Both the position numbers and the translations under genes were made by a program. Below, piece by piece: positions 20,004-63,393 of a stretch of DNA of 64,000 nt. This DNA comes from Octopus vulgaris (lineage: Eukaryota), in the NCBI GenBank assembly GCA_951406725.2, contig OX597822.1, positions 868,001 through 932,000 on the forward strand. The letters are read 5' to 3'. Every line of letters starts with the position of its first letter. The stretch's first letter is position 1. Under the pieces are notes generated by a model, which was not told the origin of the DNA, did not search any database, and was given only the letters and a program-made list of their open reading frames with translations.

Positions 20004-20568
20004 ATAAGTTTAACAATTAAGGATAATCTCTTAATAAGGGATCTTACTTTGTCCCTCCTAGTGTGAGGCATTTATGTGTAATAATGCCCTCTATAAATAT
20101 AGATATAATTAATTTGTTCAAAAGAAAAAATTATTTTCGGATTCTTTTCTTTATGAGGTTTTCACGCTAGCTACCCGATAATTTCTTGTTAAGATCCCTT
20201 ATTAAGAGATTATCCTTAATTGTTAAACTTATTCCGAAATACTTTTCATTACCCGACATGCAGTTCGTAAAAAGCCCGCCATTTACCGGATATATGATTT
20301 ATAAACATTCCATGTGCTTGGCCGGAGTGAGCAGTTGTCTGTTCGTCTTCGCTACGTAAGGTTGGTAGTTTATTTATGATGTGTTCAGAATCAGTTCTGC
20401 TGACGATCATTAGACGCAAGTTGTATGTGAAATCACGGTGATACAGAATAAATTCATTTTTTAAATGTCTTGCTTTGAAAAACTGCATTTGGGTGTGATT
20501 AGTATAATTTTGGTAGTAATGACTTTGTCCCTCTAGTGTGAGGCATTTATATATATATGCCCTCTATA
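20004..20568 (+). mobile_element. Non-coding hammerhead-bearing element (retrozyme/Penelope-type) with terminal direct repeat and 5' inversion
   Basis: Direct repeat 20046-20095 / 20522-20568; inverted repeat 20004-20046 / 20190-20232; HHR at 20394; (TA)n flanks; homologous to 62474-62830. Confidence 0.75.
20394..20449 (+). ncRNA. Type I hammerhead ribozyme (stem II closing pair mismatched)
   Basis: GTTCTG-CTGACGA-tCAT..ATGt-GAAA-TCAC g GTGA-TA-CAGAAT. Confidence 0.7.
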
Positions 20569-21042
20569 CAATATATATATATATATATATACACATACAT
20601 ACATATATATATATATATATATATATATACATATATATATATATATATATATATATATATATATATATATATAATAATAAATATTAGGGAATAAATCCAA
20701 ATTTACAGGGAAAAATCAGATTTAGGATTGAATCCAATTTTATAGTAAAATATTATATTATATTAATTAGAGACAAAACCACTATTATGCATGTTTTGTC
20801 TCTAATAATAATATATATATATATATATATATATATATATATGTATGTATGTATGTATGTATGTATATATATATATATATATATATATATATATATATAA
20901 ATATATATATATATAATTTACAAGATAGGGGCAAAAAAAAATTCTAATGCCAAATATGCCGAAAAAAAGACAATAATTGTCAATAACCATTATATTTTAT
21001 GCGCCTCGAAACAAACCGATAGAAATCTCTAAAAATTCGTTA

Positions 21043-21103
21043 TTACCGTATTGGAACAATTTCGGGGTTAATTCGTAAGAAATGTTCCCCTGTGCAGCGG
21101 CAA
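21043..21103 (-). ncRNA. Degenerate type I hammerhead ribozyme
   Basis: Minus strand: TTGCCG-CTGcAcA-GGGG..CCCC-GAAA-TTG ttc CAA-TA-CGGTAA; three stems pair, two core substitutions. Confidence 0.6.
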
Positions 21104-22039
21104 ATACGCAAGATATAAGTGAAATACTTACTCACACCCATGGAAAAAGCAAGCACTAAGTCCTGAGCAGAACTAAGTACCCCAAATATATCCAAAATAG
21201 AAAAATCTTCGGCACATCTCGAGACACATGTGATTCGAACTAGAAACTTTCACAGAGTGATAGAATCCGGAACTGAACACTATTTAATTTATAACTAATG
21301 TAGGATAAATTTTTTTTCGGGAATGTTTGTGTCTTTGTTTGTCCCCCTAGTATTGCTTGACAACCGATTCTAGTGTGTTTATGTCCCCGTCACTTAGTGG
21401 TTCGGCAAAAGACCCGATAGAACAGGTACTGGGCTTACAAAAAATAAATCCCGGGGTCGATTTGCTCGACTAAAGGTGGTGCTCAAATGACTGAAACAAG
21501 TAAAAGAGATATATATATGTATATATACCAACATTTCTCAATCTATCTCAACAGAATAAATAGGCCATTGTGTGTGTGTGTGTGTATGTATATACTTTTA
21601 ACTTTTATTTCTTTCAGGGACTGGACCTCGGTCATACTAGAGCACTGTTTAGTGTTTTCATCGATCTAACTTACCTTGATCCTTCGTTCAGTCTGGAATT
21701 TATCTTATGTTTCTGTATGTAACCGAGTGGCTGTTTCTTATAGCTTTTGACATCAACGTCTGTCTTATTTTAACCGCGTTGCTGTGACGAACGTAAATGA
21801 AGCACGCCTGTACAGACGGTATTATATCCTGACTCTTTATATTCTGTGTTCAACTCTCATCAACGATAATTTCGCCTATCAATTTTCTGAGGTCGATAAA
21901 ATGAACTGTTGCTTTTCTAAAAATGTCTTGTCTTGTGTCTGATTTGAAACAGTTATTATTCATGAAGTTTATTTCAATTCAGTATTACCAAAATATTTTT
22001 TTCAGTAAATTGAAAAGCAGTAAACAGTCCGTAGATTTT

Positions 22040-22700
22040 AGTTTCAAAATTTGGCACAGGACTAGAAAGTTAGTGGGATAAGTCGATTACATTGACCCCA
22101 GTACTCAACTGGTACTTATCGACTCTGAAAGGCTGAAAGCCAAAAATTGACGCAGGCGGAATTTGAACTCTACCTAATGACGGACGAAATGCCGCCTAGC
22201 ATTTTGCCCGGCGTACTAACGATTCTGCCATTTTACCGCCTTAAGCTGTCAATAGATATTCTTTTCTACTCTAGGCTCGAAATTTTTCGGGAAGGGGGCC
22301 AGTCGATAAGATCGACCCCTGTACGCAACTGGTACTTAATTTATCAACCCCAAAAGGATGAATGGCTAAGTCGACTTCCGCGGAATTTGAACACAGAACG
22401 TAAATACAGACGAAATACCTATTTCTTTACTACCCACAAGGGGCTAAACACAGATGGAACAAACAAGGACAGACAAACGGATTAAGTCGATTACATTGAC
22501 CCCAGTGCGGAACTGGTACTTATTTAATCGACCCTGAAAGGATGAAAGGCAAAGTCGACCTCGGCGGAATTAGAACTTAGAACGTAACGGCAGACGAAAT
22601 ACGGCTACGCATTTCGCCCGGCGTGCTAACGTTTCTGCCAGCTCTCCGCCTTTTTTAAAATTTTAGCACAAGGCCAGCAATTTCTGGGGAGGGGATAAAG
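22040..22700 (-). mobile_element. Cluster of SINE family A units
   Basis: Three cores in the same orientation. Confidence 0.85.
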
Positions 22701-23123
22701 CTGTCAGTAGATATTGAAAGGCCTCCCTGTAAACATTACGATACACACTTTACGATATAAGCATTGTCTTTCAGACACGAATTATTGCTTCCGTGTTCCT
22801 GCTAAACCGGAACAGGTGAAACAACGTAAATTAATGATGTGAAAGCGTGATATCTGACAAACTAATTAACAGAAACAATTAAGATATTGTATTCAGTAAT
22901 CATAATTTTTAATTATTACATTATTTAGGAAATAGAACTGTTGTGCGTACATTAAATTCTCTTGCGGGTAGCTTCTGTGCATAAGTACACAGTTTAGTGT
23001 TGGGATTCCCATCCGTGTTTTCCGAACTCCACCGGAAATGCGAGATAGTATTTCATTGTTTGCAATATAGGAAGAAAATATATACTTTATTAAATTCGCT
23101 TTTCAAAAAACAACTGTAAACTA

Positions 23124-23375
23124 TGGCGTAGTGGTTAAGAGCGCGGCTACTAGCCCCAAGATTCGGAGTTCGATTCCAGGCAGTGACCTGAATAATAATA
23201 ATAACATCGAAAAATACCTTAGGAATGAGAACTCAGGTTCGAAATTTCCCCAAGACACCTGATGAAGGCTGGAGGGTATATCAGCCGAAACGTTATGTTA
23301 ACAACAAACAAGATGAGGACAAATATCCGTCAATTGTAAATAATATATATAATTCCTCATCTCTTAAATATAGAG
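23124..23375 (+). mobile_element. tRNA-headed SINE containing a hammerhead ribozyme
   Basis: A box TGGCGTAGTGG, B box GAGTTCGATTCC; HHR 23254-23299; flanking direct repeat CTGTAAACTA (23114-23123 / 23376-23385). Confidence 0.8.
23254..23299 (+). ncRNA. Minimal type I hammerhead ribozyme
   Basis: GACAC-CTGATGA-a-GGCTG..CAGCC-GAAA-CG-TT-aTGTT; palindromic AACGTT stem III; one stem I mismatch. Confidence 0.75.
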
Positions 23376-61637: not shown

Positions 61638-62473
61638 TATGAGTGTTTTTTGATTTTTGTCAACGTTTATGTTTCATTTTGGGGTGAGGCTATGCACTTA
61701 GTCCTATCCCTGTGGACCTTTCTAGTGACCACCTGCACTTCTTTTTCTCAGAGGAGGAGGCTGAAGGCTGGCTTTTGAATTTGTGGGCCTTTGAATAAGA
61801 TTCTCTCTGTTGCCACAAAAAGTTGCATTCATTCTCTCTCTCTCTCTCTCTCTCTCTTATGCTCTCACATACATTATCTATCTATCTACCCATCAATCTC
61901 TTGACCACTCATCGGCCTGACCCACTTGTGTACACGTGGCTAAATATACGTCTGCTTCTCTCTTCTCTTTGACACATACTCTTCTCTCCCTCTCTGTCCC
62001 TCTTTCACTCTTTCACCCTTCCTATATATATATATATAAATCGTTTTCTTTCTTTCTCCCTCACCTAGTCATCTCTCTCTCTCCTCTTTTCTCTGTCTCT
62101 CATCCCATCAACCCGGATCCCTCACTGTCAGTTCTGGTAGATGCAGTTCACACCACACTTCACTGTTCAATGACAATATAAGGTTGACTGACAAGTTATT
62201 AATAAAAAAAAAAAGAATTCGCTCTTTTGGGGAAAATCTTTCTTTCTAACTGTATATGTTATACTGTGTATCAGTGTACGTGTAAGCGTAAAGCTGAGTA
62301 TGAATGTATGTGTATATATGTATGCGTGCATGCATGTATGGATATATGTGTATGCGTATAAATACATACCTCTGTGTATGTGTGTGTGTCTATCTATCTA
62401 TCTATCTATCTATCTATCTATCTATCTATCTATCTATCTATCTGTATGTATATATATATATATATATATATAG

Positions 62474-62830
62474 ATATATTATATAGAGGGTACTACTATT
62501 CATAGATACCGCACGCTTGAGTTTGTTGCACTGATGAGCATAGAATGCATATTCTGCATTAAGTGCGAAATCACAGGTGATATGTAACTAAATTCTTTTT
62601 TTAAATGACTTGCTTTGAAGTTTTGCATTCGGTAAAATTTGTTTATTTTAGTAGTTTTGACCGCAAGGGTCCCTCCTAGCGTGCGGTATCTATGAATAGT
62701 AGTACCCTCTATATAATATAAATGAACATTTTCAAAGTGGAAAAATTTACGGATTTTTTCTCTTACGAGGTTTTTCACGCTAACTACTGATGATTTCTTA
62801 TAAAGATTTTAAAAAAGATTTTAAATAAAT
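62474..62830 (+). mobile_element. Hammerhead-bearing element of the 20004 family, with 5' inversion
   Basis: Inverted repeat 62474-62517 / 62678-62720; shared blocks TTTTTTAAATG.CTTGCTTTGAA, GTCCCTCCTAG.GTG, GAGGTTTT(T)CACGCTA.CTAC. Confidence 0.78.
62525..62588 (+). ncRNA. Type I hammerhead ribozyme, intact core
   Basis: GTTGCA-CTGATGA-GCA..TGC-GAAA-TCAC ag GTGA-TA-TGTAAC; predicted cleavage after AUA at 62582. Confidence 0.85.
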
Positions 62831-62853
62831 ATATATAGTTATATATATATAAG

Positions 62854-63066
62854 AGAACTACTCTACATTAAGAGCAAATCCGTTTCCCGCAATTCAGGCA
62901 AATTCTTCGCAGTGAACATATAGAAAATTGGGCAGATAACATCAAACCAAATTTCACAGTCCCCCCCTTCAACCAGTGCAAAGACACAATCTCTCAACTA
63001 GAACGTTTGAATAAAGAAACTTTTTTCATTGAAAAATACAGAACACGCCTTAATATGCTCGCATAA
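62854..63066 (+). pseudogene. Penelope-like element GIY-YIG endonuclease, C-terminal remnant
   Basis: Manual translation RTTLH*EQIRFPQFRQILRSEHIENWADNIKPNFTVPPFNQCKDTISQLERLNKETFFIEKYRTRLN; matches the R...H...H...E..I....LN pattern. Confidence 0.72.
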
Positions 63067-63358
63067 CCAACTTTTATCTTTTTACATATTTCAATTCACG
63101 ATTATATCTCTGTAGATAAATCCCCTCACTAAACAAGGTTTTCGAAACTTGTCTTTGTCTGTACATATATATTCCCCTCCCATTACTGAAAGCTGAACAG
63201 TTATGTCCCTTACCTACAACAATAACAATAATAACGATAACCAATTACCGCCCTTTATTTATCTACTTGTGAAGCCATTCACTCTTGAATTTCATCACAC
63301 ACAACATGGACAAAATTTCTTCTTAGGAGAAAATACATATTCAAATAACTAAAACATA

Positions 63359-63393
63359 ATATCATGAATAGCGATAGCGAAACCGGTCGATAT
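63359..63393 (+). ncRNA. Degenerate minimal hammerhead in the Penelope-like 3' region
   Basis: ATATC-aTGAAtA-GC gata GC-GAAA-CCGG-TC-GATAT. Confidence 0.62.

Follow-up and report, generated by a model that had tools for sequence, protein, structure and literature searches.

In the present study, we analysed a window of 64,000 nucleotides of Octopus vulgaris DNA (assembly GCA_951406725.2, contig OX597822.1, positions 868,001 to 932,000 of the forward strand). In this window an initial annotation had listed ten hammerhead ribozyme (HHR) motifs and a half motif in islands between (TA)n tracts, and had proposed a community of Penelope-like elements (PLEs) and retrozymes. Our results indicate that the motifs are, very probably, type I HHRs that are predicted to cleave themselves and that lie in the pseudo-long terminal repeats (pseudo-LTRs) of nine families of PLEs and of their non-coding derivatives, likely inserted by the Neptune-, Hydra- and Penelope/Poseidon-type reverse transcriptase (RT)-endonucleases of this genome. 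The elements at the locus are listed below, with positions counted from the first letter of the window.

20004..20581, forward strand: family A2, a tandem non-coding element with 480-bp units, of which about 1.1 are present, plus a short inverted piece
20394-20449, forward: HHR of family A2, predicted cut after 20443
20915..21325, reverse: family H, tandem non-coding element of ~470 bp; HHR at 21043-21103, its core damaged in the window copy
23122..23378, forward: family D, a Penelope/Poseidon-type PLE represented by a solo pseudo-LTR
23114-23123 and 23376-23385: target duplication CTGTAAACTA around D
23124..23177, forward: tRNA-derived head of D, with A box at 23124-23134 and B box at 23166-23177
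23225..23378, forward: start of the D open reading frame (ORF), with ATG at 23225, continuing across the hammerhead and an optional tail of ~30 nt
23254..23299, forward: type I HHR of D, in minimal form with ACGT as stem III; cleavage predicted after 23294
55246..55323, forward: degenerate copy of family B, 83% identity, stem III broken
55340..55445, reverse: 3' fragment of family C; HHR at 55377-55439, CCGAAGA core
55959..56196, both arms: fold-back of family B; the inverted arm (reverse) has a 71-nt tail and a damaged HHR at 56058-56104, the direct arm (forward) is tail-less with an HHR at 56113-56159
56313..56540, reverse: fold-back of family F with the 3' half of an HHR only, twice, at 56411-56430 (reverse) and 56496-56515 (forward)
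56587..56812, forward: 3' fragment of family E, truncated at the HHR core, with a short inverted piece on the 5' side
62466..62832, forward: family A, inverted piece and direct arm of a 495-bp tandem non-coding element
62525-62588, forward: HHR of family A, predicted cut after 62582
62851..63507, forward: family G, 3' end of a Neptune-type PLE, ending in (TA)n
62854-63063, forward: GIY-YIG C-terminus of G, followed by its HHR at 63359-63393 with an A3-U8 core

Results

All coordinates given in the initial annotation match HHR motifs, and the half motif near 56495 is the 3' half of an HHR, present twice in the fold-back of family F. Six of the motifs (20394, 62525, 63359, 55378, 56117 and 23254) are intact or nearly intact: 63359 has an A3-U8 core, 55378 has U4C, 56117 has U4C with a stem II of 2 bp, and 23254 is a minimal HHR with one mismatch in stem I. 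The remaining four (21043, 55250, 56063 and 56600) are damaged copies. The core boxes are broken at 21043, which reads CTGCACA where 19/19 other copies among the matches listed read CTGAAGA, and at 56063, whose GAAA box is mutated; at 56600 truncation has removed the 5' strand of stem I. The use of a strict type I descriptor gave 2 motifs in the window (20400 and 62531, both forward), compared with an average of 0.02 over 100 block-wise dinucleotide shuffles, which bears out an excess over shuffled sequence. A relaxed descriptor added 55433 (reverse), 56121 (forward) and 31481 (reverse); the last is an additional candidate for a minimal HHR, absent from the initial list. Among the 150 of 305 window matches listed there was no Rfam hammerhead model, and none was found for D.

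Because the motifs beyond the strict descriptor are variant or damaged copies, the 2.8-Gb genome was searched island by island. Each island was used as a query, 40 candidates per island were scored among about 900-2,600 first-look candidates, and the remaining motifs were confirmed via their repeat families. The ten motifs and the half motif were found to belong to nine high-copy repeat families: A (62525), A2 (20394), B (55250, 56063 and 56117), C (55378), D (23254), E (56600), F (the half motif at 56495), G (63359) and H (21043). The earlier proposal that the diverse stems represent several families is upheld in this form, with fewer families than motifs. Likewise, the embedding of the islands in (TA)n holds at both ends for 7/10 elements and at one end for 2/10, as judged by (TA)4 with a window background of 6%, and fails for 23254, which has it at neither end.

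The structure of the motifs was examined in 1.68 Mb of fetched loci together with the window, where the core, the GAAA box, stem III and the UH box were required and stem I was left free. As the loci were picked around HHR families, this search tests structure and not genome-wide density. Stem I pairs at 4/4 positions in 55 of 273 motif types, versus 6.9 expected when the 3' strands are permuted (maximum 17 in 1000), and 39 motif types have both stems I and II, versus 0-1 in three shuffles. Many of these 39 types belong to families that are absent from the window, and several have a loop 2 of 50-80 nt. The stem I of A and that of A2 differ on both sides at three pairs, a compensatory change. 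In the family copies the core boxes CUGANGA, GAAA and UH are present, with U4C and 3-8 covariants; the variants are family-wide, with A3-U8 in G, U3-A8 in N781 (a Neptune-type family related to G) and U4C in B, C and H717 (a Hydra-type family, described below). Both U4C and A3-U8 may already be described by Lunse et al. in work on minimal HHR variants. A minimal HHR with palindromic stem III had been expected, and this was found for some of the motifs: stem III is palindromic in E, F and G, and the HHR of D has the minimal form described in PMC4209133, where the U3-A8 core is also already reported. A, A2, B, C and H have instead a Hydra-type stem III of 4-5 bp with a loop of 1-2 nt, like the Hydra HHRs tabulated in the supplement of PMC8557442 (Craig et al.).

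An ORF encoding RT and GIY-YIG was found upstream of the HHR for G, H717 and D. Longer copies of G carry RT, a CxxxxCxxC linker and GIY-YIG, and the related family N781 has many intact ORFs of 781 aa. N781 (L241, L242; G000:C16) is a young family with CAAT/TGACGT-like repeats in its 3' untranslated region, and its protein had no match among solved structures. A search with Hydra-type motifs, which gave 82 matches against 0 for a control pattern, led to a Hydra ORF and then to H717. This is a young and intact Hydra-type PLE family, to which Pfam assigned no family, with intact 717-aa ORFs, pseudo-LTRs at both ends (as a partial tandem in L331), a median pairwise identity of 99.4% and frequent inverted pairs. 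The 3' ends of C and H717 agree at 91% across 255 nt and have the HHR and tail in common; C also shares the start of its pseudo-LTR with H717. Tandem non-coding arrays with one type I HHR per unit were established for A, A2, H and C, with periods of 495, 480, ~470 and 901 bp respectively, and not for B, E or F. The A2 copies are 98-99% alike, with arrays of up to five among the hits. No RNA data set was listed for these units; contigs of four sequencing runs, which we guess to be RNA, cover A2 without a start, an end or a joint. When the translations were compared with PMC8557442, the motifs of the Neptune, Hydra and Penelope/Poseidon clades were seen: a CX2-5CxxC linker, DKT with CxCX5C, and DKG without a zinc linker. 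In several metagenome-assembled genomes, from symbionts and from the environment, PLE proteins were also seen with a bacterial or archaeal annotation; they probably represent host DNA in the bins.

The 3' ends were followed by (TA)4 in 39/42 copies of A, 44/46 of B, 22/25 of C, 36/37 of E, 19/23 of G, 32/35 of H717, 10/14 of H and 23/32 of F, against the background of 6%, and the window copy of A2 has (TA)n on both sides. Eight of the nine families typically end in (TA)n; in D, (TA)4 follows only 8/90 ends. Thus the view of (TA)n tracts as landing sites applies to the 3' ends of eight families and not to D, which does not target them. In inverted pairs the tail is present on exactly one arm in 13/14 cases of A, 22/23 of B, 7/7 of C, 13/13 of E and 3/3 of G. 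Such one-sided tails with inverted arms are the PLE pattern of PMC8557442 and PMC3846280, the latter describing an inverted pseudo-LTR, a target-site duplication of 8-10 bp and a tail of 31 bp, and their presence in genome-wide copies supports the view that the inverted duplications are of the PLE type. In D, an inverted piece abuts the 5' end in 18/30 loci, versus 1/50 and 2/50 for two other repeats that resemble short interspersed elements (SINEs). Both 3' ends are present in 50/86 D loci; 46 of these have a single tailed arm, 4 have no tail and none has two. Duplications of at least 10 nt surround the entire composite in 22/50 of these, while mismatched pairs gave 0.6%; the target duplications are 10-14 nt long, with a peak at 12-13.

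A Poseidon-type RT fragment found beside one D copy was used as the next search query. The D unit lies ~45 nt after the stop codon of the ORF so obtained and again directly upstream of it; therefore, D is the pseudo-LTR of a Penelope/Poseidon-type PLE. The reading of D as a stand-alone SINE mobilised by a PLE was rejected once this ORF turned up. The ORF begins at an ATG within D and reads across the HHR and tail. All ORF-bearing copies seen are decayed, at ~5% from the majority; the majority sequence of 90 loci spans 2,880 nt with an unbroken frame of 834 aa. At the 5' edge, the pseudo-LTR is marked by a tRNA-derived piece, with canonical A and B boxes spaced as in a tRNA. The first 60 nt of D are similar to tRNAs of the genome, best tRNA-Arg(TCG) among 30 (score 44, shuffled maximum 28 in 500), and the head scored 15.4 and 9.0 bits against a tRNA profile, where 0/840 shuffles reached 5 bits. 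With ARAGORN, neither the window nor any of 27 D loci yielded a tRNA, and Rfam found no whole tRNA either.

The start of D is sharp, as 28/30 head-bearing copies begin at the head. Upstream of it, 29 truncations over 13,723 nt give a rate of 0.0021 per nt, from which 96% of copies would be expected to extend past -12; 2/30 do so, and a third partly, by eye. Exact 30-mers numbered 593 just upstream of the unit versus 4,760 inside. A fold-back signature was seen at 12/30 D junctions, and 14/30 copies start at or after -6 without one. Among 30 hits of family B, which has a longer upstream part, most were seen by eye to end or fold back at a single short palindrome. In B (L635-L664) this hot 5' boundary lies at a pyrimidine-rich, splice-acceptor-like CTAG that immediately precedes stem I; for the Penelope of D. 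virilis, PMC4209133 describes an intron whose end is at helix I.

Short D copies show the same degree of divergence (5.0%) as long ones (5.6%). Four sites differ between them at uncorrected P<0.05, none of them convincing: one is explained by selection of the 'best' set and one by the variable 3' end. Judging from these sites, short and long copies do not appear to form separate lineages.

A run of four T (T4) is the termination signal of RNA polymerase III (Pol III). The D majority sequence contains no T4, against 2.84 expected under a synonymous-codon null (P=0.03), with P=0.076 under a Markov null for the whole unit, and no site in D has T4 in more than 11% of copies. Other PLE ORFs of the genome contain 8 and 7 such runs (two copies of N781), 16 (H717) and 6 (G). 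Among foreign Poseidon-type ORFs, 0/31 are free of T4 runs; the median is 3.75/kb, and several have just 1-2. One foreign Poseidon-type PLE, L552 (contig JGI1357J11328_10009043), has, where its pseudo-LTR begins (about 4765-4860 and 1974-2070), weak A/B-like boxes (6 bits) and a CCA with AAT repeats after it, and its ORF is open through the HHR with only two T4 runs. A search of viral contigs revealed no Poseidon-type relative.

Further observations were made in the window. An isolated 32-nt piece of the family B tail lies at 54835-54866. At 42965-43480, between (TA)n tracts, there is a 162-nt inverted repeat, 99% complementary with a spacing of 192 nt, in which no HHR was found. The (TA)n fold-back islands at 20680-20815 and 63945-64000, with no HHR detected, are possibly the 3' ends of other PLE families. 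RT ORF fragments of the long interspersed element (LINE) type, which we take to be of the R4-like clade, adjoin (AAT)n tracts at 36448-38711 (reverse) and 46418-48431 (forward), and fragments at 41487-42495 (forward) are presumably from a Mariner-like transposase.

Discussion

The proposal of a Penelope/retrozyme community at this locus has been substantiated: PLE ORFs lie upstream of two motifs, a third shares its 3' end with a PLE, and other motifs lie in tandem non-coding units. PLE hammerheads, retrozymes with their proposed PLE origin, and octopus Hydra and Naiad elements that target (TA)n are already in print, and the community mostly represents a system of known type, seen here in a new host. 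As in the PLEs with endonuclease described in PMC8557442, PMC3846280 and PMC4209133, there is an RT with C-terminal GIY-YIG, a pseudo-LTR with a type I HHR, an inverted 5'-truncated arm, an optional tail and, in Hydra, a bias to (TA)n. Hydra-1_Obim and three octopus Naiads are already listed with (TA)n preference; a close relative of Hydra-1_Obim is present in our genome, where an HHR nearly identical to that of Hydra-1_oBim in the supplement of that paper occurs many times. The elements differ from those PLEs in the length of the tail, about 45-100 nt for the (TA)n families versus 30-40 bp reported, and in D duplications of 12-13 nt, versus 8-10 reported (PMC8557442, PMC3846280, PMC4209133). 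They also differ in the fixed cores U4C (H717, B and C), A3-U8 (G) and U3-A8 (N781) and in the tRNA-derived head of the D pseudo-LTR.

With the non-LTR retrozymes, proposed to be non-autonomous PLE derivatives (PMC7229834; bioRxiv 10.64898/2026.07.22.740005), our families share an organisation in tandem non-coding units that each contain one type I HHR. The units are 470-900 bp here, versus 170-400 nt (PMC7229834) and 51-972 (bioRxiv 10.64898/2026.07.22.740005). In the latter work the link to PLEs is given by co-occurrence and by homology to a Xenopus pseudo-LTR, whereas here a young intact partner exists for unit C, and PLE signatures mark the insertions. On the sequence evidence, C and H717 appear to be a well-supported retrozyme-PLE pair, and D an unusual variant. 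The nearest parallel to D is SM-alpha of Schistosoma (reviewed in PMC6765202 and PMC8490949), in which a Pol III-type promoter region is followed by a type I HHR; SM-alpha, however, is described as a non-coding SINE-like repeat, while D forms the terminal repeat of a PLE that encodes protein, and the start codon of that PLE lies within D. In a recent annotation of octopus repeats there are 190 PLE families, and in its supplement the words 'hammerhead', 'ribozyme' and 'retrozyme' do not occur; nor do 'octopus' and 'cephalopod' in the main text of PMC7229834. We found no published case of a tRNA-headed pseudo-LTR, of a PLE-mobilised SINE or of a Pol III-made PLE messenger RNA in a search that lay outside subscription papers, Repbase, Dfam and SINEBase, so that prior cataloguing is possible. 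The octopus SINEs OR1 and OR2, which we take to be tRNA-Arg-derived with a tRNA-Arg-like head, provide a name under which D could be catalogued.

In the mechanism that we propose, a tandem transcript would be cut by the HHR, and the PLE enzyme would then nick (TA)n, or a non-specific site in the case of D. Priming would take place at the 3' end of the element, and the second strand may be initiated at the other nick, or else by folding back on a short palindrome, which would give the inverted arm.

Several points weigh against this account. Self-cleavage at these sites is a prediction. U4C is known from a viroid, with lower activity in vitro (PMC3088659), 8/9 Xenopus retrozyme dimers failed to cleave (bioRxiv 2026.07.22.740005), and four of the window motifs are damaged. 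In N781, (TA)4 follows just 7/12 ends, and 1/2 of the H717 inverted pairs carries tails on both arms. A, A2, B, E, F and H show no nucleotide similarity to the 3' ends of N781 or H717, and no autonomous partner was found for them by sequence among the families compared. The clade names Neptune, Hydra and Penelope/Poseidon were assigned from motifs. An origin of the motifs by chance in AT-rich fold-back DNA, or of the inverted repeats as ends of DNA transposons resembling miniature inverted-repeat transposable elements, is nevertheless extremely improbable. Loose CTGANGA...GAAA matches are indeed common, with 78-106 raw hits in shuffles, but the shuffle and permutation controls, the control pattern of the Hydra search, the unequal arms with one-sided tails and the RT-endonuclease ORFs upstream all contradict such an origin.

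Within the PLE account, the head of D can be explained in more than one way. We give about an even chance to its being a relic of a tRNA or SINE insertion, the solo D copies being ordinary 5' truncations of the PLE that accumulate at the palindrome GCCC-AC-GGGC or at an RNA polymerase II start. Family B shows that a sharp start can exist without A and B boxes, the D junctions carry fold-back signatures, and divergence is the same in short and long copies, which no convincing diagnostic site tells apart; this reading has to face the 14/30 copies that begin at or after -6 without a fold-back signature, the weakness of the hairpin (-3.3 kcal/mol as DNA) and the lack of T4 runs, which it leaves unexplained. 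A working type 2 Pol III promoter, from which a short pseudo-LTR RNA spreads in a SINE-like manner and possibly the whole coding RNA is made, is a serious candidate at somewhat under even. The canonical boxes with their profile scores, the sharp 5' start with the drop in 30-mers upstream of it, and the absence of T4 in a unit whose 31/31 foreign relatives have it argue for such a promoter. The similar 5' hotspot of B, the 12/30 fold-back junctions (PMC3846280 explains pseudo-LTR palindromes by self-priming), the Markov null with the foreign ORFs of just 1-2 T4 runs, and the need for a long RNA to be translated argue against it. Quite improbable is an independent tRNA SINE lineage with a borrowed PLE 3' end: solo copies are far more numerous than long ones and the head best matches tRNA-Arg(TCG), but copies with an ORF have the same head ~45 nt behind their stop codon, upstream pseudo-LTRs have it too, and convincing lineage-specific sites are lacking.

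Synthesis of the D coding RNA by Pol III is, taken by itself, unlikely. The same low probability applies to the fuller proposal that a Penelope/Poseidon PLE captured a tRNA-derived Pol III promoter and purged T4 from a 2.6-kb unit, with Pol III making both the RT-endonuclease messenger and a short SINE-like RNA. It is doubtful, to a like degree, that the short RNA outnumbers its parent about tenfold, that the in-frame HHR controls cleavage or cap-independent translation, and that L552 is a second case. Self-cleavage can drive cap-independent translation in RNA viruses (PMC13725137), and to carry this over to D would be speculation.

Overall, which enzyme mobilises animal retrozymes is an open question, and H717 and C, with a common 3' end, ribozyme, tail and (TA)n target, give a testable pair. 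The non-standard cores U4C, A3-U8 and U3-A8, fixed in recently active families, would escape standard descriptors. If the D head does work as a Pol III promoter, this would illustrate how an element resembling a SINE can originate within an autonomous PLE, and it might also be a case of a messenger RNA made by Pol III.

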